A stretch of DNA of 64,000 nucleotides from assembly GCA_964648205.1 (NCBI GenBank), contig CAZYNT010000003.1:5357-69356 (forward strand). The letters run 5' to 3'. Each line of letters opens with the position of its first letter. The first letter of the stretch is position 1. The notes under the pieces are model-generated. The model did not search any database. It was not told where the DNA came from and was given only the letters and a program-made list of their open reading frames with translations. Made by a program: the position numbers and the translations under genes. Source of the DNA: an uncultured Gammaproteobacteria bacterium (lineage in GTDB: Bacteria; Patescibacteriota; Patescibacteriia; Patescibacteriales; UBA12465). Positions 3,745 to 63,731 of this stretch are shown here, piece by piece.

Positions 3745-3774
3745 TTGACCCCCCATAAAAATAGAAGGTATAAT
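3745..3774 (+). promoter_or_regulatory. Sigma70-like promoter upstream of the flippase arm of the glycan locus
   Basis: TTGACC at 3745-3750, an 18-bp spacer, then TATAAT at 3769-3774. This lies about 75 nt upstream of the ATG at 3848. Confidence 0.45.
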
Positions 3775-3847
3775 TGAGCCATGAGCCAAAAAATCAAGCC
3801 CGGCGCCGTTTAAAGCGTTTGAAGAAAGGCGTTTAGAATTTAATTTC

Positions 3848-8001: not shown

Positions 8002-8005
8002 ATTA

Positions 8006-10374: not shown

Positions 10375-10375
10375 A

Positions 10376-11104: not shown

Positions 11105-11161
11105 CGCAATAGATATTATTGAATATATATTTTTTATACCATTAAATTTACTAATTCATTT

Positions 11162-12624: not shown

Positions 12625-12627
12625 TAG

Positions 12628-14436: not shown

Positions 14437-14500
14437 AAAATTAACTCATTTGCAAATTTTTAAAAAATTATTTTTATGTTAGCAATTTATTTTTATTTTT

Positions 14501-29552: not shown

Positions 29553-29591
29553 TTTTTAATTACGATTATTGTTAGCAAATAAAAAGGATTT

Positions 29592-31440: not shown

Positions 31441-31459
31441 AAAATGGGAAATAAAAAAA

Positions 31460-31540
31460 CCACTAGACATCGGCCATTATTATCAGTCGTTATAATTACG
31501 ACTTTGGACCGTTAAAGTTACGGCCGGCGCATGTCTGTGG
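31460..31540 (+). repeat. 81-nt nested inverted-repeat element (possible structured RNA)
   Basis: The outer stem pairs CCAC(T)AGACAT at 31460-31470 with ATGTCTGTGG at 31531-31540. A middle stem pairs CGGCC at 31471-31475 with GGCCG at 31522-31526. The inner hairpin pairs AGTCGT at 31485-31490 with ACGACT at 31498-31503 around a TATAATT loop. Confidence 0.35.
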
Positions 31541-31595
31541 TAATCAAACTTTATTATATTGTTATAGTAATGTCAATAAATAAAACAGCGAAAGC

Positions 31596-32435
31596 ATGAT
31601 AGAGAGAAAAAACAAAAAACAAATCACTCTTTTTTCCGGGCAAGAAATTCGGCGTTTTTGGGATGATAAAGAAGAAAAATGGTATTTTTCGGTGGTGGAT
31701 ATTATAATGGCTTTAACTGATAGTGAGGATCCTAATGACTATTGGTATAAAATGAAAATTCGTGTAAAAAGTGAAGATGGTTTTCAGTTGTCGACAATTT
31801 GTCGACAACTGAAATTTTTAGCTAAAGATGGCAAGAATTATTTATCCGATGCCGCCGATACCGAAAGCATTTTTCGTATTATCCAATCAATTCCTTCGCC
31901 GAAAGCTGAACCCTTTAAGCTCTGGCTGGCTCGGGTCGGATACGAACGGGTTGAAGAAACCGAAGACCCAGAAAAAGCGATTCGAAGAGCTCTCGCAACT
32001 TATTTGAAAAAAGGTTATTCTAAAGATTGGGTTGATTTGCGTTTAAAGAGTATTGAAATTAGAAAAGATTTGACAAACGAGTGGGAAGAGCGTGGCGTTA
32101 AGGAAAAGAATCAGTTTGCTATTTTAACCGACGATATAACTTTTGCCTGGGCAGGATTAAAGACGAAGGATTATAAAAAAATAAAAGATTTAAAAAAAGA
32201 AAGTTTGCGGGATAATATGACCAACTTAGAGTTGGTTCTAAATATGCTCGCTGAGGCATCGACCACTGAGATTTCTAAAAAAGAATTACCAAATACGTTC
32301 GATAAAAATAGACAAGTAGCTAAAAGGGGCGGCGGCGTGGCCGGAGTAGCCAGACAAGAGCTAGAAAAGCAAACTGGACACGCGGTTGTTTCTCGGCGGA
32401 ATTTTTTATCAAATAAAAAACATTTATCGAGATAA
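31596..32435 (+). CDS. Bro-N domain / DinD-like (DNA-damage-inducible protein D-like) protein
   Basis: The N-terminus (LFSGQEIRRFWDDKEEKWYFSVVDIIMALTDS...) has a Bro-N-type pattern. The overall length and the helical C-terminal half resemble E. coli DinD as I recall it. Confidence 0.6.
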   Translation: MIERKNKKQITLFSGQEIRRFWDDKEEKWYFSVVDIIMALTDSEDPNDYWYKMKIRVKSEDGFQLSTICRQLKFLAKDGKNYLSDAADTESIFRIIQSIPSPKAEPFKLWLARVGYERVEETEDPEKAIRRALATYLKKGYSKDWVDLRLKSIEIRKDLTNEWEERGVKEKNQFAILTDDITFAWAGLKTKDYKKIKDLKKESLRDNMTNLELVLNMLAEASTTEISKKELPNTFDKNRQVAKRGGGVAGVARQELEKQTGHAVVSRRNFLSNKKHLSR

Positions 32436-40787: not shown

Positions 40788-41828
40788 ATGTTCAATAAAC
40801 TTATCGGCCGCTTTAGCCATGATTTAGGAATCGATTTAGGCACTAGGAATACCTTGGTTTATGTTACCGATAAAGGGGTGGTTGTGAACGAGCCGAGCGT
40901 TGTCGCTATTAATAAGCGCACCAATGAAATTTTGGAAGTGGGCGAAGCCGCTAAAAAGATGGTTGGTAAAACTCCGGGGCACATTGAAGCGATTAAACCA
41001 CTAGTGGATGGAGTGATTTCTGATTTTGAAATCACGGAAAAGATGTTGAAATATTTTATCAATAAAGTCCACAGTGAAAATTTTACCCTTATCCCTCGCC
41101 CCCGCGTCGTCATTGGCATTCCGCTTGATTTGACCGAAGTGGAAAAGAAAGCGGTTGAAGACGCCGCTCGTTCGGCCGGAGCCAGAAAAGTCTATTTGAT
41201 TGAAGAGGCGATGGCGGCGGCGATTGGCGCGCGCCTGCCCGTAACCGAAGCGACCGCGACGATGATTGTCGATATCGGCGGCGGCACGACTGAAATCGCC
41301 GTTGTTTCTTTGGGTGGCGTCGTTACTTGGCGCTCGCTGAAAGCGGCGGGCAATGAATTTGACAATAATATTATTGAATATATCCGCGAGGAATTTAATA
41401 TCTTAATCGGCGAGCAATTGGCGGAAAGCATTAAGATCGGCATTGGTTCAGCCGTCCCGCTTGATGAGCCTAAGGAAATAGAAGTCAGGGGCCGCGATCT
41501 GTTGACCGGTCTGCCGAAGGCGATTATGATTACCGACAAACAAGTTCGCGAAGCGATTAGCCGGACTATTTCCAAGATTATTGAAACCATTAAGACGATT
41601 CTTGAGACCACTCCGCCGGAACTGGTTTCCGATATTTATGAGCGAGGCCTTTATTTATCCGGCGGCGGCGCTTTGCTGCGCGGGCTCGATAAGGCGATTT
41701 CCGCCGCGGCGAAAATTCCGGTTAAAATTGTTGATGATCCGCTGACTTGCGTGGCCCGTGGAACGGGTTTGCTTTTAGGCAATAAAGAACTGCTCGAAAA
41801 AGTCGTATTAGCCAACAACCAAGAATAG
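40788..41828 (+). CDS. mreB: Rod shape-determining actin homolog MreB
   Basis: DLGIDLGTRNTLVY, IVDIGGGTTEIAV, LSGGGALLRGLD. mreC and mreD follow. Confidence 0.92.
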   Translation: MFNKLIGRFSHDLGIDLGTRNTLVYVTDKGVVVNEPSVVAINKRTNEILEVGEAAKKMVGKTPGHIEAIKPLVDGVISDFEITEKMLKYFINKVHSENFTLIPRPRVVIGIPLDLTEVEKKAVEDAARSAGARKVYLIEEAMAAAIGARLPVTEATATMIVDIGGGTTEIAVVSLGGVVTWRSLKAAGNEFDNNIIEYIREEFNILIGEQLAESIKIGIGSAVPLDEPKEIEVRGRDLLTGLPKAIMITDKQVREAISRTISKIIETIKTILETTPPELVSDIYERGLYLSGGGALLRGLDKAISAAAKIPVKIVDDPLTCVARGTGLLLGNKELLEKVVLANNQE

Positions 41829-41854
41829 GCGGCCCTAAATAAGATTTTTTTATC

Positions 41855-42667
41855 ATGAGAAAAATAAAAAAGAACAATCCGATTGTAATTTCACTGGTAG
41901 TTTTCGGGCTACTGGTTTTTTTACATAGCGTCGGAATTTTGCGCCCTTTAGAAAAACTTTTTTTAAGCGCCGTCCGTCCCATAAGCGAGCGCCTTTATGG
42001 CCTAGGCGATTCTTTCAACCGCTCTTATCAAGACAAGGAAACCCAGGATTCTCTCCAGACTAAAGTCGACGAACTGACGAGGGAGGTCGCCCGCCTGACA
42101 GTCGAGAATTCGAAGCAGAAGGAATTAGCCGAAGAGAATAATAAGCTGAGAAGCCAATTGGAATTTTTAAATGATAATAATTTCAAAGCGGTGGCGGCGG
42201 CGGTTATCGCGCGCGAAACTTTAGCCGAGGGGACGGAAGCCAGCCAGGATTTGATTATCAATAAGGGCACTAAAGACGGGATTGCCGCCGGCCAAGGGGT
42301 AGTGTCCGAAGATGGCTTGATTATCGGTAAAATAATCGAAGCTAAAGAAACGAGCGCTAAAATTTGTTTGACGACGAGTCCGGAATGTAAATTGGCGGCC
42401 GCCATTCAGAACCAGACGAAAACGCAGGGGATTACCGACGGCGATTTAGGATTGACCATAAAAATGAATTATATCCCCCAACTAGAAAAGATTGTTGTGG
42501 GAGACACAGTTATCACTTCCGGCTTGGGAGGGAAAATACCCCGCGGCTTGTTGATCGGCAAAGTAATCGAAATTAGGAATGAAAGCAATGAAGTCTGGCA
42601 GGATGCGACTATAGAGCCTTTGGTTAATTTGAATAATTTGACCGTCGTGACAGTTATTATTCCTTAA
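41855..42667 (+). CDS. mreC: Rod shape-determining protein MreC
   Basis: N-terminal TM helix, a coiled coil (LTVENSKQKELAEENNKLRSQLEFL), and a C-terminal beta domain (VVSEDGLIGKI...VITSGLGGKIPRGLLIGKV). Confidence 0.8.
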   Translation: MRKIKKNNPIVISLVVFGLLVFLHSVGILRPLEKLFLSAVRPISERLYGLGDSFNRSYQDKETQDSLQTKVDELTREVARLTVENSKQKELAEENNKLRSQLEFLNDNNFKAVAAAVIARETLAEGTEASQDLIINKGTKDGIAAGQGVVSEDGLIIGKIIEAKETSAKICLTTSPECKLAAAIQNQTKTQGITDGDLGLTIKMNYIPQLEKIVVGDTVITSGLGGKIPRGLLIGKVIEIRNESNEVWQDATIEPLVNLNNLTVVTVIIP

Positions 42668-42671
42668 GCTT

Positions 42672-43214
42672 ATGATAAAGCGCATTTGGCAAATATTCAT
42701 TTTGTTTTTCTCTCTTTCTTTTTTAGCTTGGCTGCAGTTTTCTTTTGTTAGCGCTTTGCCCGATCCCTATCGCCAGCTTAATTTGGTTCTCATCATCCTG
42801 ACATTTATCCTTTTTTTCTTGGATTTTTACACCGCCTTGCTTTCCGCGCTCATGGCCGGATTTTGGCTCGATGTTTTGTCTTTTCATTTTTTCGGGTTTT
42901 ATCTGATTATTTTTTTGAGCACGCTTTTTTTGGCGCAATGGGTGCTGAAAAATTGGCTGACTAACCGCTCTTTCTATACTCTATTGGCGCTGATGGTTGG
43001 TTTGACGATTTTTTATAATTTTCTGGCTGCGGCTATTCTGTCATTGTTCAGCTCTGGCCTTGATACTTTTTTCCTTTTTCAGTCTCATTTTTGGATAACT
43101 TTAGCTTATCAGAGCTTGTGGAGCTTTCTGGCGGCCCTGATTTTATTTAATCTGGCTACCCTGGCTTCGAAAAGAATTAAACCCTTTTTTTTGGAAAAGA
43201 AGACTTTTTTATGA
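42672..43214 (+). CDS. mreD: Putative MreD
   Basis: A 180-aa polytopic membrane protein immediately downstream of mreC. The assignment is mainly positional. Confidence 0.55.
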   Translation: MIKRIWQIFILFFSLSFLAWLQFSFVSALPDPYRQLNLVLIILTFILFFLDFYTALLSALMAGFWLDVLSFHFFGFYLIIFLSTLFLAQWVLKNWLTNRSFYTLLALMVGLTIFYNFLAAAILSLFSSGLDTFFLFQSHFWITLAYQSLWSFLAALILFNLATLASKRIKPFFLEKKTFL

Positions 43215-46949: not shown

Positions 46950-47957
46950 ATGTTTATCAAAAGAATCGGGATTGATCTCGGTACAACCTATACTCTTGTC
47001 CATTTGCCGAAACGCGGGATTGTTATTAATGAACCCAGCGTCGTCGCTGTTTCTATAGCCGATAAAAAAATTTTAGCGGTTGGCAACGAGGCTAAGGACA
47101 TGATCGGCCGCACGCCCGATACTATTTTGGCCGTTCGTCCCTTGAAGGATGGCGTAATCGCCGACTATAAAGCGACTGAAGCGATGATTCGCTACTTTAT
47201 CAATAAAACTTTGGGTGGAATCCGCTTGTTCCGTCCGGAAGTCATGGTGGCTGTGCCGGCCGGCATTTCTTCGACGGAACGCCGCGCTGTTATCGAAGCG
47301 ACGATAGCCGCCGGCGCCAAAGCCGCTTATATCATCAAAGAACCGGTCGCCGCGGCGATCGGCGCCGATATTCCGATTGGTTCCGCGACCGGCCATATGA
47401 TTGTTGATGTCGGCGGCGGCACGGCGGAAATGGCGGTTATTTCTCTGGGCGGCATCGTTGCCTCAACTTCCGTCCGCGTGGGCGGCAATAAATTCGACGC
47501 GGCCATCCTTGAATATATCCGTAAAAAATATAATTTGGCAATCGGCGAAAGGACGGCGGAAGAAATAAAAATAAATATCGGTTCGGCTCTTTATATGGAA
47601 GACAAATTGCATATGGAAATAAGAGGGCGCGATATTGTCACCGGCTTGCCGCGCAGCATCACCGTCTCAAGCGATGATGTGACGGAAGCTATTCAAAACG
47701 AACTTGAAGCGATTATTTCGGCGGCCAAGAAAGTCTTGCAGAAAACTCCGCCCGAATTAGCGGCCGATATTATGGATAAAGGGATAGTTCTAACCGGCGG
47801 GAGCTCGCTTTTGCGCAACATAGACCAGCTAATCTCCCGGACGACCGGTGTACCGGCTTATGTCGCCGACGACGCAATGCTCTGCGTCGCCAAGGGGACA
47901 GGCATTGCTTTAGATAACCTGGATTCATATAAACGCAGTATTTTAGCGACTAAGTAA
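46950..47957 (+). CDS. mreB: Second MreB/Mbl-type actin homolog
   Basis: [37 protein letters not shown]. By eye it is about half identical to the copy at 40788-41828. Confidence 0.9.
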
Positions 47958-52448: not shown

Positions 52449-53528
52449 TCAGTTTATACCAAGAATTTTATTCTTTAAATCTTCCAAATCCCCCGGCCTA
52501 AACAGCTTATCATAATCATTAACAGTTTCCGGAATGCCGCCGATGTTAGCGGCCAGGACTTTTAAGCCGGTAGCATGAGCCTCATAAATCGTCATCGGCG
52601 AATTTTCATAGCATAAAGAGGGGACAATCAAAAAGTCGTTTTCCGCCATAATTTCTTTTACCTGATCGCTGGACAGTCTTCCCCGGAATTCAATTTGCTT
52701 GCTCTCTCCGGCCATATTTCGAGCAGCGCTTAGAAGGGAGCCGTCGCCGATAACAGTTAATTTAATATCAGGCCTTATTTTCAGGGCGCTTTGGAAAGAT
52801 TTTAAAAGAAACATAATTCCTTTATGTTCTTCAATTTGGCCGACAAAAAGGAAATTTTTTGCCGCTTGATTGCGATTTATAGCCGCCGCGCTTTTAAGCG
52901 TTGTCAGATTTTTAATTTCGGTTTGAGAATCCTTAAAGAAACCGCGCTGGCGATGCTGCTCAAGTAGCCAGAAGGAGGGTGAAATAACTTTAGCCGGCGA
53001 ACCTAGAAAATCACGGGTAAAGAGTTGATAAATTCTAGCGCTTAAGCCATCGATGACGCTTTCTTTTCCCAGCATCATCAGTCCCGTGGGATAAAGCAAT
53101 TGGATGTCGTGCAAATAATGCTCATGGCGGATTTTGAGCTTTTTAATCACTAAGGGTAGAAGAAAGCCCAGCCCCATGAGATTATGAGTAATAACCAATT
53201 CCGGTTTTTCTTTTATTAGAATTTTTTTAATCGCCGCCGCCTTGCGCCAGGAAAAAATATTGGCGAAGTGCCAGAAAACTTTTATATATGAAGGCAGCTT
53301 GGCCAGATTATAATAATAAGAAGGGAAGTAATATATCCGCAATTCCTCATTAAATTTTTCATTGTCGGACGCTTTTTCTTTGCGCGCGGGCTGAGGCTTC
53401 GGTTTGGTCGTAATCAGAAAAACATCATGGCCCTGCGCTTTTAAATCGGCGGCCATTTGCCTGACAACTGTTTCCGCGCCGCCGCGGTTATACGGACAAT
53501 AAAGATTGTTCGCGAGAGCGATTTTCAT
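52449..53528 (-). CDS. Glycosyltransferase family 4
   Basis: MKIALANNLYCPYNRGGAE...LFVGQIEEHKG...IVPSLCYENSPMTIYEAHATGL. Confidence 0.8.
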   Translation of the reverse strand: MKIALANNLYCPYNRGGAETVVRQMAADLKAQGHDVFLITTKPKPQPARKEKASDNEKFNEELRIYYFPSYYYNLAKLPSYIKVFWHFANIFSWRKAAAIKKILIKEKPELVITHNLMGLGFLLPLVIKKLKIRHEHYLHDIQLLYPTGLMMLGKESVIDGLSARIYQLFTRDFLGSPAKVISPSFWLLEQHRQRGFFKDSQTEIKNLTTLKSAAAINRNQAAKNFLFVGQIEEHKGIMFLLKSFQSALKIRPDIKLTVIGDGSLLSAARNMAGESKQIEFRGRLSSDQVKEIMAENDFLIVPSLCYENSPMTIYEAHATGLKVLAANIGGIPETVNDYDKLFRPGDLEDLKNKILGIN

Positions 53529-53540
53529 TTTAATTAAATA

Positions 53541-54668
53541 TTAATTAAATAAAATTTCTAAACAACTTTTCATTTTATTTTTATCGTATTTGGTCTTAGC
53601 TAAGCGCCTGGCAGATAGCGCCATGATGCGCCTCATTTCTTCGTTGTTGAAAATAAATTCTAATTTGTTCTTTAAGTCTATTTTATCGCCCGGCTCAATT
53701 AACAGACCCTGCTCATGATCGCTAAATACTCGGCGAACGCCGGGCAAATTTGAGGCAATGACCGGAACGCCGCAAGCCAGCGCTTCGATTAAAACTAGCC
53801 CGAAAGCCTCATTGCTATTGATCGAGGGAAGGATGAATAAGTCGGCATTTTGAAAAGCGCGAACCAGTTCTGTATCGCTCAACTTGCCAGTGAATTCGAT
53901 TTGTTTTCTTATATTTAAACGGTCGCTCAAATTTTCGTAATACGGGCGCAAATCGCCTTCGCCGACAATCTTCAGACGCCAATTGCGGTGCGTGACGATA
54001 ACCAGGGAATTCAGCAGGACACCAACTCCTTTGAAGTAGTGGGCTTGATCCAGCCCGCCGACGAACAATAAATTTAAACGGTCGCGTTTAATAAATTTAT
54101 CATTGACATAATGGACTATCTCTTGGGCGCGGGCGATAATTTTATTATCCAGCGGGCGATTCAATAATTTCGGTTGGAATTTTTCTAAATCGATTCCAAA
54201 GGGAATTTCCCGGAATTTACTCTTGTGGGCTTCGTAATAATTTTTGATTTGGCTGGATTTAATATAATCTAAACTGGCCGTGACGATAGTTTCTGCTTGG
54301 TTAAGCAGGGAGCGGCGGACAAGGCGGCTTGGCAAGCTTAAAAACCGAGCCAGCGGGCTGAGACCGCGCACATCCATATGATAGTGGATTATTAATTTAG
54401 GCCGCCGGAAAAATAGTTTGAAGAACCAGACGACTTCTGCGGTTCCGAAAAAAGGGTAATGGAGATAAATATAATCAAATTTGTTCAAGCGCCAGAAGAG
54501 CTGCGGCAAAAAAGCGCCATGGCCCAAGCGCAGCCATGGTTTAAGGGTCGAAGGAGTAAAAGTCGTTATCTCGTGTTTGCCTTCGAGCAATTTATTTATT
54601 TCGTAGGCGCTGTTGCCGATGCCGCCGGCATAAGGCGGGAAGGCGCAGACAATCGAGGCGATTTTCAT
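53541..54668 (-). CDS. Glycosyltransferase family 4
   Basis: LLFVGGLDQAHYFKG...ILPSINSNEAFGLVLIEALACGVPVIAS. Confidence 0.8.
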   Translation of the reverse strand: MKIASIVCAFPPYAGGIGNSAYEINKLLEGKHEITTFTPSTLKPWLRLGHGAFLPQLFWRLNKFDYIYLHYPFFGTAEVVWFFKLFFRRPKLIIHYHMDVRGLSPLARFLSLPSRLVRRSLLNQAETIVTASLDYIKSSQIKNYYEAHKSKFREIPFGIDLEKFQPKLLNRPLDNKIIARAQEIVHYVNDKFIKRDRLNLLFVGGLDQAHYFKGVGVLLNSLVIVTHRNWRLKIVGEGDLRPYYENLSDRLNIRKQIEFTGKLSDTELVRAFQNADLFILPSINSNEAFGLVLIEALACGVPVIASNLPGVRRVFSDHEQGLLIEPGDKIDLKNKLEFIFNNEEMRRIMALSARRLAKTKYDKNKMKSCLEILFN

Positions 54669-54683
54669 AGTTAAATAGAGGCG

Positions 54684-55004
54684 CTATTTTTTTAAAGTCA
54701 GAGCCTGGTTAAGGGTGCTGATATTTTTTTCCATCTTGGCGATTATAAGTCGCATCCGGAAAACTTGGTAAATCAAAGCGAGAACCGCTAGATAAACTAA
54801 GATGTTAATCGCCGATCCGGAAAAACCTAGCCAAGCCACAAGCAGGTCGATTTGTTTTATAAATATGACCGCACCAAGAGCGAACAGCCAGAAAATCAGC
54901 CAGAGAAGGAATTCGTTCCCGTTAATTTGTTTTTTCTTCCTTTGCCCGAAGAGGCGGAGAAGGAAGAAAGCGATAATGATTAAAGCGAGAATTTGTTGGA
55001 GCAT
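54684..55004 (-). CDS. DUF2304-like small membrane protein
   Basis: 106 aa with three TM helices. It lies immediately downstream of a GT2 gene (1-nt gap), which is the arrangement I recall as typical for DUF2304. Confidence 0.55.
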   Translation of the reverse strand: MLQQILALIIIAFFLLRLFGQRKKKQINGNEFLLWLIFWLFALGAVIFIKQIDLLVAWLGFSGSAINILVYLAVLALIYQVFRMRLIIAKMEKNISTLNQALTLKK

Positions 55005-55005
55005 A

Positions 55006-55668
55006 TTAATTGATTAATTTTTGGATTATTATATCTTTGATTATTTGGAAGCCGCCGCTCAGTTTCTGGCCGTAGTGATGGTAAATAACCGTGATAGGAA
55101 CTTCAACTACGCGGTTTTTGTTCTTGAATAGTTTATAAATAATTTCGCTGCAGTGAGCCTTGCCGTCATTTTCGATTTTTAAATCCAAGGCGCTTTGGCG
55201 GCTTAAAGCGCGGAAGCCGCTCTGGGGGTCGCTTAAACGGATATTGAAGAATAAGAGGTTTACAAAACGGGCAAGCGGCATGATGACATATTCTTTAGCC
55301 TTCGGGAGATTCGATTTTTTGGTCAGGAAGCGGGAGCCCAATACGGCGTCAGCCTTATTTTCAAGGATAGGCTTTATCATTTCCGGTATATCGTTTGCCT
55401 GAAATTGGTCGTCGGCGTCAAAATGAATAATAATATCGGCGCCTCTGTCTAAAGCGAGCTGCGTGCCGGTGCGCAAAGCCGCTCCTTGGTCGCGGTTGAT
55501 AATATGGCGGACGGCGATAGCGCCGGCAAGCTTAGCGGCGCGGAAAGTATTATCCTTCGAACCGTCGTCGATTACTATGATTTCATCAACAAAAGGACGG
55601 ACATTATTTATGACTTTTGTAATATTTTTCTCTTCGTTATAAGCGGGGATAACACAGGTTATTTTCAT
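55006..55668 (-). CDS. GT2 polyprenol-phosphate glycosyltransferase (Dpm1/GtrB-like)
   Basis: KITCVIPAYNEEKNI...IVIDDGSKDNT...HFDADDQ. The 220-aa length is typical of the soluble-type enzyme. Confidence 0.8.
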   Translation of the reverse strand: MKITCVIPAYNEEKNITKVINNVRPFVDEIIVIDDGSKDNTFRAAKLAGAIAVRHIINRDQGAALRTGTQLALDRGADIIIHFDADDQFQANDIPEMIKPILENKADAVLGSRFLTKKSNLPKAKEYVIMPLARFVNLLFFNIRLSDPQSGFRALSRQSALDLKIENDGKAHCSEIIYKLFKNKNRVVEVPITVIYHHYGQKLSGGFQIIKDIIIQKLIN

Positions 55669-56672
55669 ACTCTTTCATCTTTCAAGAGGCCGTCTTTTAT
55701 TTTTTTCTGTTTGTCAAAACTGAGCGGCTCGTAGCCTTCTTTGAGCGCCAGGCGGCCTAATTTTTCCCAAAATTTTTCTGCGGCTGTTTCTAATTTAGTT
55801 CCAAGAAGGTGTTTTTTAATATTTGGCGTTAATTCCAAAACCTCGAAAAGTCCGATTGCTTGGCGCTTCTTGGTCCGCTTTAAATCAACAATCCGCTGGT
55901 TAATGATCAGTTTAAGGCTGTCAAGCTTTAATTTCAAGGGCATTTTCATTTTTAGATAACCGGCCAAGATTTCCCAGACCGAGTCGGCGGTTATAGTGCT
56001 TAGGACGAGCCGGCCAGTAGCGGCCGCAGCCGTAGCATCTCTAAGATCGTCTTCAGTTTTTATTTCCGTGATAATGATATCAGAATCAAGTTGCAGGATT
56101 TTGGCCCAATTATTCTTGGTGGCCGGCAGATTATTTATGCCCTCTAAAGGATACTCTAATTTCGACCCTAAAAAATAAAGGCTGCGATCGGGCGTATTTA
56201 TTTTTTGCAGCAGGGAATAGAGCGTGGTGCTTTTGCCTTGGCCATGGGGCGAGCTCAGCAAGATAAGCCCGGAATTTTTATGCAAAGCCGCTTTTATTGT
56301 CTTAAGATGATTTCTCTGCAAACCTAGCTGCTCCAAGCGCAAAAGCCGGTTATTTTTCGGCAGAATATTGATTATTATTTTTTCGCCGCTTCGCGCCGGC
56401 AGAATCGTCAAGTAAAAGGTCAGGCGGCAATTGCTGTCTTCAATTTTGCAATATTTTTTCATGGTTAACTCGTCGGGAGCGATAGAAAGAAGCTGCCGGA
56501 GTGCTAGACCCAGGTTTTTTTCTAGTTTTTTAGGAAGGCCGAAAGAGCGCTCTTCGCCGCCGGGGAAACGGTATCTCAAGGCAACTTTTTGAGGCGCGCT
56601 CTCGATGACTAAGCCATGGGCGCCTTCGCTCAAGGCATAATTAAAAATATGGGAAATGATTTTTTTGCTCAT
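55665..56672 (-). CDS. GspE/PilB-family secretion-ATPase-like protein, short and His-box-degenerate
   Basis: Walker A is SSPHGQGKSTTLYSLL. The Walker B region is DSDIIITEIKTEDD (canonical DPDVIMVGEIRD). The His box reads TGRLVLSTITADS (canonical TGHLVLSTLHTN). It is 335 aa with no tetracysteine motif, and it overlaps the GT2 start by 4 nt. Confidence 0.7.
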   Translation of the reverse strand: MSKKIISHIFNYALSEGAHGLVIESAPQKVALRYRFPGGEERSFGLPKKLEKNLGLALRQLLSIAPDELTMKKYCKIEDSNCRLTFYLTILPARSGEKIIINILPKNNRLLRLEQLGLQRNHLKTIKAALHKNSGLILLSSPHGQGKSTTLYSLLQKINTPDRSLYFLGSKLEYPLEGINNLPATKNNWAKILQLDSDIIITEIKTEDDLRDATAAAATGRLVLSTITADSVWEILAGYLKMKMPLKLKLDSLKLIINQRIVDLKRTKKRQAIGLFEVLELTPNIKKHLLGTKLETAAEKFWEKLGRLALKEGYEPLSFDKQKKIKDGLLKDERV

Positions 56673-56754
56673 AATACTATTATTATACCTTATTTTGTAT
56701 TATTTTAAAATGTGTTAAAATGATTATATTAACCCGCATTTTTGCGGGATTTAA

Positions 56755-57186
56755 GTGTTATTTCAAGACTATATGGCTTATTCTAATTTTTATGCCCGTT
56801 TCCGCACCGCGCTTGATAAAATAAAGCTGTCTTTTAATGTTATTTTTCATTTTCGTCCTGCCCTTGTTTATTCAGCTTTTATTGCCGCTTGGCAAATAGT
56901 CGCCTGGTTCCAGGTTTGGTTCATTCATCGCAAATTAAGCGGCAATATCCTGGTTTTACATTATAACGTTGATTTCGGTATCGATTTGGTGGGCAATCCG
57001 GCGCTCATCTTTCTTTATCCCCTCCTCGGCTTGGGCGTTTTTTTGCTTAATCTGATTATTTTGGCGGTTTTCTATAAAGATAAGAATTTTAAAATTTTGA
57101 CTCATTTTCTTTTGGGCGCCGCCGCTCTATTCGGCTTATTTTTAAGCATCGCGCTTTTAGCGGTTTATCTAATTAATTTTCGTTAA
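56755..57186 (+). CDS. Hypothetical polytopic membrane protein preceding mraY
   Basis: GTG start at 56755, with an alternative ATG at 56773. It has 3-4 hydrophobic helices and no motif I recognise. Confidence 0.4.
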   Translation: MLFQDYMAYSNFYARFRTALDKIKLSFNVIFHFRPALVYSAFIAAWQIVAWFQVWFIHRKLSGNILVLHYNVDFGIDLVGNPALIFLYPLLGLGVFLLNLIILAVFYKDKNFKILTHFLLGAAALFGLFLSIALLAVYLINFR

Positions 57187-57192
57187 GTCATT

Positions 57193-58242
57193 ATGTTGGA
57201 ATTTTATCTGGTTAAAGTTTTGTTTTTCGCCACCCTCGCTTTTATCTTTGCTGCTTTGGCGACTCCGCTTCTGACCCACTATCTTTATAAATATAAATTA
57301 GGTAAAAAAATAAGAAATAACGGCGCGACGCCGATTTTTAGCGAACTCCACGCCCATAAGGCGGGGACGCCGACAATGGGCGGTATTTTGATTTGGGGCA
57401 CGGTTTTATGCTTGATTTTATTGTTTTCCGCTTTTTTCCAATTTTTGCCCGGGGCGATTTTTGAGCACTTGAATTTTCTCTCGCGGGCGGAAACGCTTCT
57501 ACCCCTGGGAGCTCTTATCATTACGGCGCTTATCGGTTTATTTGATGATTGGCTGGATGTCCGAGGCAAGGGAGTGCTCGGCGGCGGCGGTTTAAAATTG
57601 CGCCATCGCATTCTAATTTATACTTTAATTGCGATCGTTCTCGCTCTTTGGTTTTATTTTAAATTAGATTGGACGGTCTTCCATGTTCCTTTTTTGGGTA
57701 ATTTTGAAATCGGCGCCTGGTATATTCCAATTTTTATTTTCGTAATCGTAGCCACCTCCTTTTCAGTCAATGAAACGGACGGTCTGGACGGTCTGGCCGG
57801 CGGCACGCTGCTAATTTCCTTTATGGCCTATGGCGTTATTGCTTTCGCCCTCGGCCGCTATGATTTGGCAACTTTCTGCGGGGCGATTTCCGGAGCTCTC
57901 TCCGCTTTCCTTTGGTTTAATATTCCGCCCGCCCGGTTTTATATGGGAGATACGGGGGCGATGAGCTTGGGCGTTACTTTGGGCGTAATCGCCATGCTTA
58001 CCAATAGCGCCTTATTATTGCTTTTAATCGGCATTATCTTTATGGTAGAGTCCCTGTCGGTTATCATTCAAGTTCTATCCAAGCGATTCCGCGGCAAAAA
58101 GGTTTTTATCTCTTCGCCCATTCATCATCATTTACAAGCTATCGGCTGGCCCGAGGCGAAAGTGGTTATGCGCTTCTGGGTTATCGGGGGAATCGGGACG
58201 GTTATCGCCTTGATGGTTTTTTTATTGGATCAAAAATTTTAA
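57193..58242 (+). CDS. mraY: Phospho-N-acetylmuramoyl-pentapeptide transferase
   Basis: GTPTMGG, DDWLDV, NETDGLDGLAGG, FYMGDTGAMSLG, PIHHHL. Confidence 0.92.
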   Translation: MLEFYLVKVLFFATLAFIFAALATPLLTHYLYKYKLGKKIRNNGATPIFSELHAHKAGTPTMGGILIWGTVLCLILLFSAFFQFLPGAIFEHLNFLSRAETLLPLGALIITALIGLFDDWLDVRGKGVLGGGGLKLRHRILIYTLIAIVLALWFYFKLDWTVFHVPFLGNFEIGAWYIPIFIFVIVATSFSVNETDGLDGLAGGTLLISFMAYGVIAFALGRYDLATFCGAISGALSAFLWFNIPPARFYMGDTGAMSLGVTLGVIAMLTNSALLLLLIGIIFMVESLSVIIQVLSKRFRGKKVFISSPIHHHLQAIGWPEAKVVMRFWVIGGIGTVIALMVFLLDQKF

Positions 58243-58257
58243 GCGTAAAAAATAAGT

Positions 58258-59412
58258 ATGGCCTTCAGTCGTCTGCGAAAAAAAATATTCGCCCCGCGCT
58301 CTAATTCTCATGAACCGGACAAAAGCTTGATAACCGCCATGTTTATTCTTGTTGTTTTCGGTTTGGTTATGCTCTTTAGTGCTTCTTCGGTCGTTTCTTA
58401 TTCGCGCTATGCCAATACTTACCATTATTTTATCCGCCAGTTTGTCTGGGTTCTGCTTTCTCTCGGCGTTTTTTGGGTAGCCTCGCGTATCGATTATCGG
58501 ATTTTAAAAAAATTCGCCGTTTTCTTTTTGTTCGCCTCGATTATTTTATTGTTATTGGTTTTTGTTCCCGGAATCAGAGCCGAATACGGGACGGCGCGCA
58601 GCTGGATCAATATTTTTGGCTATTCCTTCCAGCCTTCGGAATTGGTGAAGCTATCCTTTTTGATTTATCTGGCTACTTGGCTTGAAGCCAAAAAGGGGGA
58701 ATTAAACAGTTTTTCTAGCGGTATTTTGCCTTTTTTGGCGATTTTAGGAGTTATCAGTTTACTAATGCTTGCCCAGCCCGATCTCGGTACTCTATTTATA
58801 ATTGCTTTCACCGCCATGGTTGTTTTTTTTGCCGGCGGCGGCAAGGTAACCCATATTTTTTTAGCGGTTCTTTTAGCCGGCTTGGTTTTGTTTGTCATGT
58901 TGAGCCTGAAAACTTCTTATCAGTCCGATCGCTTTAAATGTTTGAAGGACCCCAGCTATAGCGCGCAGGATAAATGCTATCAGATTAACCAGTCTTTGAT
59001 CGCGGTCGGTTCCGGCGGCTGGTTTGGGCGCGGCTTGGGGGAAAGCCGTCAGAAATTTATGTATCTGCCTGAAGTTTGGGGCGATTCGATTTTCCCGGTC
59101 ATCGCCGAGGAGATAGGCTTTGTCTTCAGCGCTCTTTTAATACTGCTTTATTTGTTTATATTTTATCGCGGCCTGATAATCGCCCGGAACGCTCCTGACA
59201 TGTACGGCAGTTCGCTTGCCGTCGGAATCGTAGTTTGGCTGGCGGTGCAGACATTTTTGAATATCGGGGGGATGATCAATTTAATCCCGATGACGGGCGT
59301 GCCGCTGCCTTTTATTTCGGCCGGCGGATCAGCTATACTCGCCAACTTGATTGCGATGGGAATATTGGTTAATATCAGCAAGCAGACAAAGCAAGCGCGC
59401 CATCATTTTTAG
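58258..59412 (+). CDS. ftsW: SEDS-family peptidoglycan polymerase FtsW/RodA
   Basis: FQPSELVKL, QPDLGT, PEVWGDSIFPVIAEEIGF, PMTGVPLPFISAGGSA. The ftsW assignment follows from the position between mraY and murG. Confidence 0.85.
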   Translation: MAFSRLRKKIFAPRSNSHEPDKSLITAMFILVVFGLVMLFSASSVVSYSRYANTYHYFIRQFVWVLLSLGVFWVASRIDYRILKKFAVFFLFASIILLLLVFVPGIRAEYGTARSWINIFGYSFQPSELVKLSFLIYLATWLEAKKGELNSFSSGILPFLAILGVISLLMLAQPDLGTLFIIAFTAMVVFFAGGGKVTHIFLAVLLAGLVLFVMLSLKTSYQSDRFKCLKDPSYSAQDKCYQINQSLIAVGSGGWFGRGLGESRQKFMYLPEVWGDSIFPVIAEEIGFVFSALLILLYLFIFYRGLIIARNAPDMYGSSLAVGIVVWLAVQTFLNIGGMINLIPMTGVPLPFISAGGSAILANLIAMGILVNISKQTKQARHHF

Positions 59413-59415
59413 ATT

Positions 59416-60510
59416 ATGGAAAAAACAAATCATCAAACAATATTATTTAGTGGCGGCGGTACCGGAGGATCAGTAACGCCGCTTTTGGCCGTCGCTACGG
59501 AGCTTATCTTAGATCGCCCCGATTTGAATTTAGTTTTTGTTGGTGCAAGTTCCGGGCCGGAAAGAGAATTAATCGCTAATTTTAAAGATAAGCCGATTAA
59601 GTTTCTCGAAATTCCGGGCGGCAAATGGCGCCGTTATTTTTCTATTTATAATTTTTTAGATGTCTTTAAAATTATAGCCGCCTTTTTTAAATCATTGGGG
59701 ATCTTGCGCAGAGAAAGGCCGAATTTAGTTATCAGCGCCGGCAGTTTTGTGAGCGTCCCGCTCATTTTGGCCGCGGCCTGCCGCCGCATCCCTATTTTGA
59801 TTCATCAGCAAGACATACGTCCCGGGCTGGCCAATAAATTAATGGCGCCGTTTGCGCGCGTGATTACAGTTACGTTTGAAAAATCATTGATTGATTATGG
59901 CTCGCGGGCCGTTTTAACCGGCAATCCCTTAAAGGACGTTTCCGCCTATAAAGCCAATACCATAGAAACGCGGCGCCAGTATGGTTTTAAAATCGAAATG
60001 CCTTTAGTTTTGGTAATCGGCGGCGGCACGGGAGCCAGCGCGCTCAATTCTTTAATTATTAAATCTTTGCCTGATTTATTGCCGGTTTGCCAAATCGTCC
60101 ATCTGACGGGATACGGCAAAAAAACAGCGGCCGACATTAAAAATGATAATTATCAGTCTTTTGAATTTTTAGATCAGAATGAAGTTTTGCGCCTCATGGC
60201 CGCCGCCGACTTGGTCGTTTCACGTTGCGGCCTCGGCGTTTTAACGGAGCTTTCGGCTCTGGGCAAAGCGGCAATCTTGATTCCCATGCCGCATTCCCAT
60301 CAAGAAGATAATGCCGGCTTTTTCAAGGATCGCGCCGCCGCCGTTGTTTTAGATCAAGACAACTTGAGCGCCGATTCGCTTTCGTCGGAGATAAAGAAAA
60401 TTATTTCCGATGCTAAATTAAGGGGCGGTTTGAGCCAAAATATTATTAAAGTCATGAAACCATTGGCGGCGCAGAATATCGCCGCTATTATTTGGGAGAT
60501 TATAAAATAA
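59416..60510 (+). CDS. murG: UDP-N-acetylglucosamine--lipid I GlcNAc transferase
   Basis: FSGGGTGGSVTPLLAV...HQQD...VIGGGTGASALN...SRCGLGVLTELSALGKAAILIP. Confidence 0.9.
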   Translation: MEKTNHQTILFSGGGTGGSVTPLLAVATELILDRPDLNLVFVGASSGPERELIANFKDKPIKFLEIPGGKWRRYFSIYNFLDVFKIIAAFFKSLGILRRERPNLVISAGSFVSVPLILAAACRRIPILIHQQDIRPGLANKLMAPFARVITVTFEKSLIDYGSRAVLTGNPLKDVSAYKANTIETRRQYGFKIEMPLVLVIGGGTGASALNSLIIKSLPDLLPVCQIVHLTGYGKKTAADIKNDNYQSFEFLDQNEVLRLMAAADLVVSRCGLGVLTELSALGKAAILIPMPHSHQEDNAGFFKDRAAAVVLDQDNLSADSLSSEIKKIISDAKLRGGLSQNIIKVMKPLAAQNIAAIIWEIIK

Positions 60511-60511
60511 A

Positions 60512-61930
60512 ATGAAAAAACGAACTCGCCAGAAAAATATTTATTTAATCGGGATTAAGGGCGTCGGCATGACGATGCTCGCTCAATTTTTGGCCGAAAA
60601 AGGCAATAGAATAAGCGGCTCTGATATCAAAGATACCTTCATGACCGATCGCGTTTTAAAAAAGGAAAAAATAAAGATTTTCAGCCCCTTCGCCCCGGAA
60701 AATATTCCCGAAAAAATTGATTTAATAATCCACTCTTCCGCCTTTACCGCCGAAAATAATGCGGAAATGGCTTTTCTTAGAGACAACCCCGAACGTTTTA
60801 AAAAAATAAGGATTTTATCTTATGCTGAAGCGCTCGGTGAAGTTTTTAATGGTTATTGCGGAATTGCCGTCTGCGGCAGCCACGGCAAGACAACCACTTC
60901 CGCCTGGTTGGGCTATGTCTTGGAAAAATCCGGCAAATCGCCGAACGTTTTGGTCGGCTCCCGCGTGCCGCAATTAAAAGGGAGCAGCCTTTTGGGCAAG
61001 TCTAAATACTTCGTGGCCGAAGTCGATGAGTATCAGAATAAATTGCAGTATTTTAGGCCGCAGGGCGTTATTTTAAATAATATTGAATTTGATCATCCCG
61101 ATTTTTTTAAAGACCAAGCCGCTTACACTAAGGTCTTTGCGGACTTTGTTAAAAAAATTCCGCCAACCGGCTGGCTCGTCGTTAGTAATCGCGATGCCGA
61201 AATCAGAAAAATTAAAAAATATTGTGCGGCGCCAGTTATAACTTATGATATCGCGCCGCTTGGTAAGACAGTCGAAACGGTTAATTATCTCGCTCACAAT
61301 CTGCAATTAAAAAATGGTTATCAGGTTTTTTCGGTTAATGATTGGGGCGAATTTAAGATTAGCTTATGGGGAGAGCACAATATCTATAACGCGCTGGCTG
61401 TTATCGCTTCCGCCCGCGCCCTAAAAGTTTCTATTCCTGATATAAAGAAACATTTAGCCGGATTTAAAGGGACGGAGCGCCGCGCGCAATTATTAGGCAA
61501 GTATAAAGGTGCTCTGATTATTGATGATTACGCGCATCATCCCACGGAAATCAAAACGACTCTTAATGGTTTGCGCGCGCGCTATTCTCAGAAAAAAATA
61601 ATTACAGTTTTCCATCCCCATACCTATACGCGAACAAAAGCCTTGTTTAAAGATTTTATAACTAGTTTCGCCGCCACCGATGAATTAATCGTGTTAGATA
61701 TCTATGGTTCGGCGCGTGAGAAGCAGGGCGGAGTTTCGAGCCGGCAGCTCGCTCAAGAAATTATTAAATATAATAAATCTCAGCAGATTTCTCAATCCGT
61801 CAAATATATCGCGACCATTCCTCAAGCGGCTAGCTATCTAAGTGGCCGGTTAAAAGAAAATAACCTTCTTTTGCTAATGGGAGCCGGTGACGTCTTTAGA
61901 ATCGGAGAGGCTCTGCTTTTTTGTTTTTAA
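60512..61930 (+). CDS. murC: UDP-N-acetylmuramate--L-alanine ligase
   Basis: IGIKGVGMTMLAQFL, AVCGSHGKTTTSAWL, NIEFDHPDFF, DDYAHHPTEI. Confidence 0.9.
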   Translation: MKKRTRQKNIYLIGIKGVGMTMLAQFLAEKGNRISGSDIKDTFMTDRVLKKEKIKIFSPFAPENIPEKIDLIIHSSAFTAENNAEMAFLRDNPERFKKIRILSYAEALGEVFNGYCGIAVCGSHGKTTTSAWLGYVLEKSGKSPNVLVGSRVPQLKGSSLLGKSKYFVAEVDEYQNKLQYFRPQGVILNNIEFDHPDFFKDQAAYTKVFADFVKKIPPTGWLVVSNRDAEIRKIKKYCAAPVITYDIAPLGKTVETVNYLAHNLQLKNGYQVFSVNDWGEFKISLWGEHNIYNALAVIASARALKVSIPDIKKHLAGFKGTERRAQLLGKYKGALIIDDYAHHPTEIKTTLNGLRARYSQKKIITVFHPHTYTRTKALFKDFITSFAATDELIVLDIYGSAREKQGGVSSRQLAQEIIKYNKSQQISQSVKYIATIPQAASYLSGRLKENNLLLLMGAGDVFRIGEALLFCF

Positions 61931-61934
61931 GAAT

Positions 61935-63731
61935 ATGAAGTTAATAGAAGCTAAAACTGAAAATAAAGAAAAAGAAGTGATTTCTTGGGGACGCTTTTGG
62001 GCCGAACTCTGGCAGCTGCTCAGGCCGTTTAGGAAATTATTTTCAATCATCACCGCCTTTGTTGTCGTGTTGGCGGTTTTAGATTTGTTTTCTCCTTACA
62101 TTTTAAAGCTCTTAATAGATAATTTAAGCAGCTTTGACGCCGCTAATATTCTATTTCTCGTCCAGCTGATCGTCTTATATCTCGCTACCAGCCAAGTCCA
62201 CTCCGTGCTCGATTATTTTGCCGATCGCCGCATTTTGAAATTATTGGTGGAAATCGAATATCATTTAGGCATCAAGGCGCAGGCTAAATTAGTCTCGCTC
62301 GACTTAGGGTATCATGAAAGGGAAAACACCGGCGCCAAGATCGTCAAAATCGAACGGGGAATAGATAAAATATCGCAATTTCTCAATAATATTTTCTGGG
62401 AGGTCGGGCCGACAATCATCCAATTACTTTTTACTCTCGTTGCTTTATTTTGGACGGATTGGCGCATCGGCTTGTCATTTTTATTCTTCGCCCCCCTTTA
62501 TTTAATCGTCACCTACTTCGCGAATAAGCGTATGTATCCGATTCGCAAAGAGATTTATCGCGACTACGAAATTGCTTCCGGAAAAATGGGCCAGGCGATT
62601 ATTAATATCAACGCCGTTCAATCTTTCGTGCAGGAAAAACGAGAAATCAAAGAATTCGATAAGATTAAGGAGCATGTCCGCGATAATGAAAACAAGCAAT
62701 ACGGCTGGATGATGAAGGTCGGGCTGGGCCGCAATACTATTATTGATTTAGGCCGCGCCGTCGTCTTGTTTTTGGGAGTTTACTTCGTTTATCGCGGCAT
62801 CTTAAGCGTCGGTACTTTAATCTTTGCTTTTACGCTCAGCGAGAAAGCCTATATCTCCCTTTACCGCCTGTCGCGTTTCTATGATCGGATGGAAGAGGGG
62901 CGCGAAGGAGTTAATCGTCTGCTTAAGTTATTCAACAGCGAGACCGCCATTATTAATAAAAAGAACGGGTATAAGCCGAAAAATATTCAAGGCGAAATTA
63001 AATTTTCCGGAGTATCTTTTTACTATGGCGATAATAAACAACCGGCAGTTAGCAATTTGAATTTTAAAATTAATTCCGGTTGCGTGACTGCGCTCGTCGG
63101 ACCTTCAGGCGGAGGCAAGACCACTCTAGCGCGCCTGATTTATCGCCATTACGACCCTCAAGAGGGCCAAGTGCTTTTAGACGACAGGGATTTGCGCGAT
63201 TATGATTTGAATAGTTTCCGCAAATTCTTGGCCATTGTTCCTCAAGAGGTGGAAATTTTTGATTTAAGCGTCCGGGAAAACATCGCCTATGCTAAGCCGG
63301 AAGCCAGTTTTAAAGAAATCCAGGCGGCGGCGCGCATTGCCAACGCCGAAGAGTTCATCGAGAGATTGGACAAGGGCTACAATACTATGGTTGGCGAGCG
63401 CGGTATAAAATTATCGGGCGGACAAAGGCAGCGGATCGGCATCGCGCGCGCCATTCTCGCTAATCCGCGGATTCTTATTTTCGATGAAGCAACTTCCAAT
63501 CTTGATAGCCAAAGCGAGGTTCTGATTCAAGACGCGATGGAAAAAATCAGCAAGAATCGAACGATGATTATTATTGCCCATCGCCTGAGCACCATTAAAA
63601 AAGCCGATAAGATTATCGTGCTTGAGAATGGCCAAGTGGCCGAAGAGGGAAGCCACAGCGAGCTCGCCCAAGTCAACGGCGGCTTGTATTCCAAGCTTTT
63701 GAATCTGCAAAAAATAGGTGACGTAGAGTAA
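61935..63731 (+). CDS. ABC exporter, fused TMD-NBD (MsbA/Type IV exporter-like), catalytically canonical
   Basis: I place the start at MKLIEAKTEN. Walker A is GPSGGGKTT, the signature is LSGGQRQR, Walker B is ILIFDEATS and the H-loop is IIAHRL. Confidence 0.88.
   Translation: MKLIEAKTENKEKEVISWGRFWAELWQLLRPFRKLFSIITAFVVVLAVLDLFSPYILKLLIDNLSSFDAANILFLVQLIVLYLATSQVHSVLDYFADRRILKLLVEIEYHLGIKAQAKLVSLDLGYHERENTGAKIVKIERGIDKISQFLNNIFWEVGPTIIQLLFTLVALFWTDWRIGLSFLFFAPLYLIVTYFANKRMYPIRKEIYRDYEIASGKMGQAIININAVQSFVQEKREIKEFDKIKEHVRDNENKQYGWMMKVGLGRNTIIDLGRAVVLFLGVYFVYRGILSVGTLIFAFTLSEKAYISLYRLSRFYDRMEEGREGVNRLLKLFNSETAIINKKNGYKPKNIQGEIKFSGVSFYYGDNKQPAVSNLNFKINSGCVTALVGPSGGGKTTLARLIYRHYDPQEGQVLLDDRDLRDYDLNSFRKFLAIVPQEVEIFDLSVRENIAYAKPEASFKEIQAAARIANAEEFIERLDKGYNTMVGERGIKLSGGQRQRIGIARAILANPRILIFDEATSNLDSQSEVLIQDAMEKISKNRTMIIIAHRLSTIKKADKIIVLENGQVAEEGSHSELAQVNGGLYSKLLNLQKIGDVE

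Follow-up and report, generated by a model that had tools for sequence, protein, structure and literature searches.

A PilB/GspE-like protein, very probably a pseudo-ATPase maintained by selection, is encoded at the head of a GT2-DUF2304-GT4-GT4 operon in a Falkowbacteria-like lineage

Across the PilT-like ATPase family the conserved elements are the Walker A and Walker B motifs, the catalytic Glu, two arginine fingers, the Glu of the Asp box and the His of the His box, and in PilB the residues R286 and H420 (the latter in the His box) contact the γ-phosphate, with R271 pairing with the Asp-box Glu that binds Mg (PMC5424180). ComGA, the short competence-pilus ATPase of Firmicutes, lacks a long N-terminal domain but retains every catalytic box, and its gene belongs to the comG pilus operon. 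A relation between PilB and polysaccharides is known from Myxococcus, in which the production of exopolysaccharide remains under the control of a PilB variant deficient in ATPase activity, independently of pilus assembly (PMC5544727). Regarding the synthesis of lipid-linked sugars, the DUF2304 protein GacJ of Streptococcus pyogenes forms a detergent-stable complex with the family 2 glycosyltransferase (GT2) GacI, lowering the Km of GacI for undecaprenyl phosphate from 18.7 to 1.1 μM and increasing its Vmax several hundred-fold (bioRxiv 10.1101/180810), and the mycobacterial Rv3632 protein likewise stimulates PpgS (bioRxiv 10.1101/180810; PMC3485146). In this work we describe a locus that brings together relatives of PilB/GspE and of GacI/GacJ, namely an operon located at positions 52449-56672 (minus strand) of a 64-kb stretch of contig CAZYNT010000003.1 (hereafter the window), whose first gene codes for a PilB/GspE-like protein of 335 aa with degenerate catalytic motifs (hereafter the ATPase-like protein).

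A first-pass annotation of this DNA had proposed a five-gene minus-strand operon in which a GT2, a DUF2304 protein and two family 4 glycosyltransferases (GT4) follow the ATPase-like gene. Examination of the five open reading frames (ORFs) with Pfam agreed with this composition, the genes being as follows:

55665..56672, minus strand: probable pseudo-ATPase with a PilB/GspE core (N2D domain plus RecA-like C-terminal domain, CTD), first cistron; 335 aa; T2SSE PF00437, 98 bits (cut-off 24.9), E 6e-28
55006..55668, minus strand: GT2, candidate polyprenyl-phosphate-sugar synthase of the PpgS/GacI type; 220 aa; Glycos_transf_2 PF00535, 87 bits
54684..55004, minus strand: DUF2304 membrane protein, putative activator or anchor of the GT2, similar to GacJ/Rv3632; 106 aa; PF10066, 56.7 bits; rich in transmembrane (TM) segments
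53541..54668, minus strand: GT4 glycosyltransferase a; 375 aa; Glycos_transf_1, 128 bits
52449..53528, minus strand: GT4 glycosyltransferase b, fifth and last gene; 359 aa; Glycos_transf_1, 78 bits

The ATGA at 55665-55668 is common to the stop of the ATPase-like gene and the start of the GT2 gene, and both this 4-nt overlap and the 1-nt gap between the GT2 and DUF2304 genes, which had been noted in the first reading, can be read directly in the sequence. The remaining gaps are of 15 nt (DUF2304-GT4a) and 12 nt (GT4a-GT4b), and the gene downstream of GT4b is convergent; because of the overlap, the short gaps and this convergent gene, a five-gene operon is the natural reading. Both GT4s gave generic family matches only, and a reading of the region as a defence system, suggested by Pfam matches to 'GT4-conflict', was rejected because these matches are overlapped by much stronger generic GT4 matches.

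To which branch of the secretion ATPases the first gene product belongs was clear from several comparisons. A sequence search against the PDB gave GspE and PilB as the best matches (~1e-20) and PilT at 1e-8 or weaker, and membership of PilT was rejected because of these much weaker scores; ComGA, similar to the window protein in length and in having no long N-terminal domain, was rejected as well (NCBIfam ComGA 62 bits versus GspE 128 bits). The AlphaFold (AF2) model of the ATPase-like protein, built with 38 homologues, reached a mean pLDDT of 90.4, and Foldseek matched it to the PilB/PilF core with TM scores of 0.79-0.83 at ~21% identity (E 8e-27), the value of 0.83 being that of the core of Geobacter metallireducens PilB. 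The likeness to PilB/GspE extends to the N2D plus RecA-like CTD, the P-loop GxGK[ST], the GEK strand motif and the order of the helices past the His-box position. In the alignment to PilB, residue 4 of the query corresponds to residue 205 of the PilB chain, which indicates an N2D plus CTD core without the N1/MshEN domain, and no PF05157 match to this domain was found in the ATPase-like protein.

The catalytic motifs of the protein were inspected by mapping the residue roles reported in PMC5424180 through the alignment to G. metallireducens PilB, and the corresponding columns were counted over 59 distinct orthologues. In the window protein the motif positions are these:

56226..56255, minus strand: Walker A remnant SSPHGQGKST, residues 140-149; Lys147 and the Ser/Thr kept, first Gly replaced by Ser
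56367..56414, minus strand: former arginine-finger positions in the N2D strand region; PilB R271 replaced by Y87 and R286 by N102
56151..56177, minus strand: Asp-box remnant YFLGSKLEY, residues 166-174; GS in place of the ED pair, the Glu that binds Mg (PilB E357) retained as E173
55980..56018, minus strand: His-box remnant TGRLVLSTITADS, residues 219-231; R221 in place of H413 and T228 in place of H420

The Walker B motif, DIIITE, keeps the catalytic Glu (E203), and no CxxC pair of the four-cysteine (Cys4) zinc site is present in the window protein. The initial description of these motifs, that is, a GQGKST Walker A and a catalytic Glu that are kept, two His-box histidines that are replaced and a tetracysteine that is absent, was correct in all its items, the alignment to GspE/PilB finding no intact His box, but it was incomplete, since the arginine fingers, the ED pair and the N1/MshEN domain are also lost. 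The elements for nucleotide sensing and inter-subunit coupling are lost, and a bare P-loop/Mg/Glu core survives in the window sequence.

Among the 59 orthologues the Walker A Lys column contains Lys in 48, Arg in 10 and Leu in one. The column of R286 has Arg in none of them and that of R271 in 10, and the second His-box column is never His, the first one being Arg in 57. An acidic residue (E or D) occupies the column of the Mg-binding Asp-box Glu in 32 orthologues and is lost in the other 27, and the Walker B acid stands in its canonical column in 34 and in either the canonical or the preceding column in all 59. The Lys, the Asp-box Glu and the Walker B acid occur together in only 25 of the orthologues, and the sublineages differ in which catalytic residues are lost; the sole sequence with a Walker A Leu (locus L095) retains the first His and the Cys4 site, so that decay followed another route there. 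Conversely, R221 is nearly invariant across the family, and new conserved motifs have appeared, i.e. KYCK (at the former QDGR loop), NW, AAxxGRL, LPLKLKLD and IGLFE.

The frame of the gene is intact in ~70 distinct sequences that range from 32 to 100% identity, and the dN/dS values (pairwise Nei-Gojobori, four pairs of loci) were 0.09-0.21 for the ATPase-like gene, compared with 0.05-0.11 for the GT2, 0.11-0.21 for GT4b, 0.09-0.12 for MurG and 0.01-0.04 for MraY. Purifying dN/dS and intact frames in spite of varied losses of catalytic residues point to a pseudoenzyme rather than to a pseudogene, and we are highly confident that the protein is a PilB-derived pseudo-ATPase maintained by selection. 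Database records call its orthologues 'type II secretory ATPase GspE/PilB'; nevertheless, the protein fails on the arginine fingers, the His box, the zinc site, the N1 domain and the pilus or secretion context, and therefore it should not be filed as either PilB or GspE. Two irregular cases concern sequence quality: the apparent 272-aa truncated copy at locus L022 is an artefact, caused by masked positions (a run of N), and the fragmentary matches at locus L075 are scattered over several overlapping frames in each of the genes, a sign that the contig is probably frameshifted and of low quality.

A database search returned hundreds of relatives, of which the best 120 were all ~290-360 aa long, with identities down to 42%, and those that carried a name belonged to Candidatus Falkowbacteria or to 'Patescibacteria group'. 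When 1.8 billion cluster representatives were searched with a profile, the family core came first, followed by tandem PilB fusions of ~1000 aa and then by ordinary PilB; a profile search that included distant forms, run through a word-indexed database, added few new members, and a genome scan with a narrower alignment gave 14 loci, all Falkowbacteria-like. As a separate observation on the fusions, P0156 and P0160 (Candidatus Paceibacterota; ~980-1000 aa) contain two complete PilB modules in tandem, with Walker A, Asp box, His box and Cys4 intact in both modules, and can therefore be regarded as covalent PilB dimers.

Within the family, three architectures share one locus. The forms of 355-400 aa retain the Cys4 site and have lost the second His of the His box, the first being Arg except in L095; those of ~335 aa are of the window type; and those of ~290 aa stop just past the IG.F motif. 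The orthologues that retain the PilB/GspE tetracysteine site at this same locus are deeper-branching. The phylogenetic placement proposed in the first-pass annotation was carried out with a neighbor-joining (NJ) tree of 239 core domains, in which the locus-derived and database members of the family formed a separate clade of 110 tips near PilB, with no canonical sequence inside, a bootstrap of 59/60 (on a subsample) and three further degenerate sequences as sister group. This topology indicates that the ATPase-like gene arose once, in a Falkowbacteria-like lineage of the Candidate Phyla Radiation (CPR).

To place the operon in its context, the genes that diverge from it have to be considered:

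56773..57186, plus strand: 137-aa membrane protein, divergent, first gene before mraY; no Pfam or NCBIfam match; LVLHYNVDFGID and YLINFR motifs
57193..61930, plus strand: mraY-ftsW-murG-murC, part of the division and cell wall (dcw) cluster, assigned with Pfam; divergent from the operon, in an arrangement that is constant in related loci

Related loci were gathered from homologue look-ups, from the genome scan and from a metagenome scan anchored on the 137-aa protein, and not on the ATPase (69 loci), and they were annotated with hidden Markov models (HMMs) built from the window genes. Wherever the flanks suffice the order is constant, with murB, the gene of an ABC exporter, murC, murG, ftsW, mraY and the 137-aa gene divergent from the genes for the ATPase-like protein, GT2, DUF2304, GT4 and GT4 (the positions of both GT4a and GT4b being kept), and with convergent epimerase, S8 protease, GT4 and MreB genes downstream of the operon. 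The divergent control region measures 44-111 nt in nearly all loci. In total, 72 distinct ATPase-like ORFs were collected, and the next gene was a GT2 in every one of the 57 that had downstream sequence (57/57); the 4-nt ATGA-type overlap was present in 25 of these 57, and the rest had gaps of ≤40 nt with only 3 exceptions. The adjacency is thus not unique to this contig. No pilus genes were found in the loci annotated for neighbouring genes, and the canonical PilB that lies in a true pilus operon at locus L029 (P0292) was set aside, as it is a split gene of an unrelated flagellated bacterium. Five of the loci of Falkowbacteria type (L011, L015, L017, L019 and L022) come from third-party metagenome-assembled genome records titled 'uncultured Gammaproteobacteria bacterium', a title that is probably a taxonomic mislabel.

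The absence of pilus genes near the operon, also claimed in the first pass, held in the window itself, since the Pfam scan of ORFs across the 64 kb, a few of which had no Pfam match at all, gave no match to pilin, PilC/GspF, PilM/N/O, PilT or secretin families, and the prepilin signal motif was absent from every frame searched. Unlike genuine pilB and gspE genes, the ATPase-like gene heads a glycosyltransferase operon and does not lie beside pilins, PilC/GspF or PilM in the loci examined.

The only true exception to the pattern was L098, the most divergent of the anchored loci, which has the GT2-DUF2304 pair but neither an ATPase-like gene nor the GT4s. At positions 3767-12574 of this CPR outgroup contig the order mraZ-mraW-(102 aa)-ftsI-murE/F leads up to a minus-strand DUF2304-GT2 pair located 55 nt from the 137-aa gene and mraY, so that GT2 and DUF2304 keep their place by the dcw cluster in a locus that lacks the ATPase. 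The link of GT2/DUF2304 with dcw is therefore older, and the ATPase-like gene was added at the operon head in the Falkowbacteria-like lineage, apparently together with the GT4 pair, as far as one outgroup allows. A GacI/GacJ-like pair embedded in an intact dcw cluster, as in L098, is unusual in itself.

The second and third genes of the operon can be compared with a described module. The best NCBIfam match of the GT2 was PpgS, with 150.7 bits over the full length, a score below the equivalog cut-off of 370 bits, and no TM segment was detected in its 220 residues. PpgS is the mycobacterial polyprenyl-phospho-N-acetylgalactosaminyl synthase. As in GacI/GacJ and PpgS/Rv3632, in which the GT2 makes a polyprenyl-monophosphate sugar, a short GT2 is followed by a small DUF2304 membrane protein, and this pairing is kept in all related loci that extend far enough, including L098. 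GT2 plus DUF2304 is thus a known module, i.e. the synthase of a lipid-linked monosaccharide donor and its membrane activator, and the same activity is predicted for the pair of the window. In contrast to the window operon, the GacI/GacJ and PpgS/Rv3632 operons contain no ATPase-like gene, and a GT-C transferase and a flippase either form part of them or are paired with them, neither of which was found in the window operon or in the window; no GT-C family was detected in the operon or in the scanned ORFs of the window, and a Wzx/MurJ-like protein is encoded at a distance, at 3848-5146.

What the ATPase-like protein does at the head of this operon can be outlined as follows. A paralogue of the assembly ATPase core of type IV pili and type II secretion has lost the parts coupling ATP to inter-subunit movement, and its gene became fixed as the promoter-proximal and often translationally coupled cistron of a GacI/GacJ-type operon with two GT4s. 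The protein, which would be made alongside the GT2 and would no longer be a motor, could be an oligomeric scaffold or switch that at most binds nucleotide, and that would organise or regulate the synthesis of the lipid-linked sugar and of the glycan built by the GT4s, possibly in order to share the polyprenyl-phosphate carrier between peptidoglycan and glycan. That the ATPase-like protein works with the glycan operon is a proposal to which we give somewhat less than an even chance, the functional link being founded on the operon structure, and the more specific idea that a ring-forming motor fold, its motor chemistry lost, was exapted to become a dedicated part of a lipid-linked sugar synthase/glycan assembly complex at dcw is put forward only tentatively. 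A precedent for part of this scheme is the PilB protein of Myxococcus xanthus, where the PilB fold influences polysaccharide synthesis without ATP hydrolysis, an effect that in the window protein is proposed only; in M. xanthus, however, PilB is a genuine active motor acting via the Dif chemosensory pathway, whereas the window gene codes for a separate, decayed paralogue in a glycan operon. Another precedent for the concept is reported in PMC12802240, where an enzyme that uses polyprenyl phosphate is activated through direct contact with a single-domain response regulator.

Several observations weigh against a partnership with the glycan operon. The loci that carry the ATPase-like gene are 87-99% (MreB) and 73-88% (MraY) identical to the window and syntenic over ~20 kb, and in such a single lineage the adjacency is weak evidence, the 57 of 57 cases not being 57 independent events; hence, of the earlier suggestion that a secretion-ATPase fold was recruited to a lipid-linked glycan pathway, the head position in the operon is supported, but the adjacency says little about function. 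In addition, the older age of the GT2/DUF2304 link is documented by one outgroup locus only (L098). GT2-DUF2304 works without any ATPase-like protein in streptococci and mycobacteria, and the pair is also present without it in that outgroup. No gene of the region evolves faster than the ATPase-like one, its tree length being 14.2 compared with 5.7 for the GT2 and 3.2 for MraY, and slower evolution would usually be expected of a tight obligate complex. Finally, evolutionary-rate covariation, calculated from branch lengths that were fitted for 9 genes of 38 loci on a fixed NJ tree, gave correlations of -0.34 to 0.36, with no partner signal, and it does not help to choose among the readings considered here.

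A different explanation would be that the protein is still a type IV pilus component, namely an inactive PilB paralogue that modulates the real motor, for instance by forming mixed hexamers or by competing for PilC/PilM, its location in the operon reflecting co-regulation. The closest relatives of the family are indeed CPR PilB proteins, type IV pili are widespread in CPR (PMC6744442; PMC12206443), and the AF2 model retains, with high confidence, the N2D-CTD packing unit from which hexamers of PilB are assembled. Nevertheless, the lack of pilus genes in the scanned ORFs of the window and in the annotated related loci, the loss of the N1/MshEN domain, by which PilB/GspE is anchored to its machinery, and the invariant position at the head of the GT2 operon all argue against such a modulator, which we regard as unlikely.

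Less probable again is that the ATPase-like protein is a partner of the divergent wall machinery (137-aa protein, MraY, FtsW, MurG or the second MreB), acting as a cytoplasmic ring that organises or gates peptidoglycan precursors. The short control region that it has in common with the 137-aa/mraY operon in nearly all loci, and an envelope-related neighbourhood of dcw genes, MsbA-like ABC exporter and MreB, would agree with this role, but the 137-aa plus mraY arrangement is unchanged in L098, where the ATPase is missing, the translational coupling goes to the GT2 and to no dcw gene, and the rate covariation with MraY (0.25) is not meaningful.

The first-pass annotation had offered an energiser among the possible roles. 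In such a case an active, unusual ATPase would energise the flipping or export of the lipid-linked sugar via DUF2304 or another membrane partner, with Arg221 and lysines substituting for the lost residues. This option draws on the fact that the window protein keeps Lys147, Glu173 and Glu203, on the near invariance of R221 and on the conservation of KKYCK at the former QDGR loop. However, the arginine fingers and the His-box His, which are among the residues most conserved family-wide (PMC5424180), have been lost from virtually the whole family, Arg or Leu takes the place of the Walker A Lys in 11 of the 59 orthologues, the Mg-binding Glu has disappeared from 27, and the C-terminal third is dispensable in 9, and because of the loss of the fingers and the His box together with the replacement of the Lys we consider an energiser improbable. 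A functionless PilB relic decaying in place, which could be suspected from the fast evolution of the gene and from the fact that sublineages have lost the Cys4 site and the C-terminus step by step, is very unlikely in view of the low dN/dS, the frames kept intact down to 32% identity and the conserved KYCK, NW, GRL, LPLKLKLD and IGLFE motifs.

With respect to previous descriptions, our full-text literature searches returned no account of a degenerate PilB-like gene joined to GT2/DUF2304 and none of a pseudo-ATPase of the T2SSE family, and a protein-family survey of CPR lumps PilB and PilT as one family without comment (PMC6744442). The earlier remark that no such arrangement had been described therefore stands for the ATPase with GT2/DUF2304, but not for the GT2 plus DUF2304 pair, already known from GacI/GacJ and PpgS/Rv3632. 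The ATPase-like family is real, conserved and confined to one uncultured lineage, and its function is what we infer.

The region from which the two divergent transcription units would start contains the following elements:

56673..56772, no strand assigned: divergent intergenic region of 100 nt between the ATPase-like gene and the 137-aa protein-mraY operon
56709-56682, minus strand: promoter-like TTTAAA-16-TATAAT, a consensus match only, ending 9 nt upstream of the ATG of the ATPase-like gene

In this region 8 promoter-like sites were counted, against 10.1 expected from shuffled sequences, so that there is no enrichment. The start of the ATPase-like gene has no Shine-Dalgarno sequence, and its transcript may be leaderless or nearly so. 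On the opposite side of the region, the 137-aa protein shows the invariant motifs LVLHYN[VI]DFG[IV]D and, at the C-terminus, YLINFR, and its gene directly precedes mraY in the 69 metagenome loci, including the outgroup without ATPase, with gaps of 2-43 nt, mostly <15 nt. A role as a MraY partner specific to CPR, or as a component of the divisome, is possible for this protein.

Further genes of envelope biogenesis surround the operon. An ABC exporter of the MsbA/PglK type is encoded at 61887-63731 (plus strand), between murC and murB; its best NCBIfam match is MsbA, with 400 bits, below the cut-off, and it is kept at this place in most of the related loci that reach that far and is missing in L099. 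This exporter is a candidate flippase of lipid-linked precursors. Past the far end of the operon come genes for an epimerase, an S8 protease that carries FG-GAP repeats, another GT4 (the third), a second MreB and a response regulator, with mreBCD located a few kb beyond. Two MreB paralogues are thus encoded within 7 kb (window 40788-43214 and 46950-47957), one of them with mreC and mreD and the other adjoining a single-domain response regulator and the GT4/S8-protease genes; the latter paralogue is 87-99% identical across the lineage, mostly 93-97%.

Elsewhere in the window, a low-GC block (31-36% versus ~43%) at 8006-15826 (minus strand), located beside a Bac_transf phosphoglycosyl transferase gene, codes for a GT2-methyltransferase fusion, a GT11 fucosyltransferase-like protein, a DUF268 protein, a GT2, a methyltransferase and a 602-aa double epimerase, and looks like a variable surface-glycan cluster, possibly acquired. 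The gene at 18646-21279 (plus strand) codes for a protein of 877 aa that has a signal-like hydrophobic segment at its N-terminus and matches no Pfam family. At 28497-32435 (plus strand) a Fic/DOC protein with a helix-turn-helix (HTH), a cell-wall hydrolase and a Bro-N protein are grouped together, a cluster that may be the remnant of a mobile element or phage.

Pilus and secretion ATPases serve as markers of their machines, and the annotation of the proteins described here would wrongly suggest a pilus or secretion function. The family offers, in addition, a natural series of motif loss in a hexameric motor, in which the zinc site goes first and the C-terminal helices next, with the P-loop and Mg ligands lost variably, and this series is useful for the study of pseudoenzyme origin. 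If the ATPase-like protein does act as an exapted subunit of the glycan complex, it would be, so far as our searches and our knowledge go, the first pseudo-ATPase of the PilB/GspE family with a role outside filament and secretion machines, and it could give a handle on how ultrasmall bacteria split a scarce polyprenyl-phosphate pool among their wall polymers. A true partnership with the GacI/GacJ-type pair would represent a new kind of accessory subunit in a pathway that makes the side chains of wall polysaccharides in Gram-positive pathogens, and, for the uncultured CPR bacteria, one of the rare clues to envelope biogenesis that can be tested.

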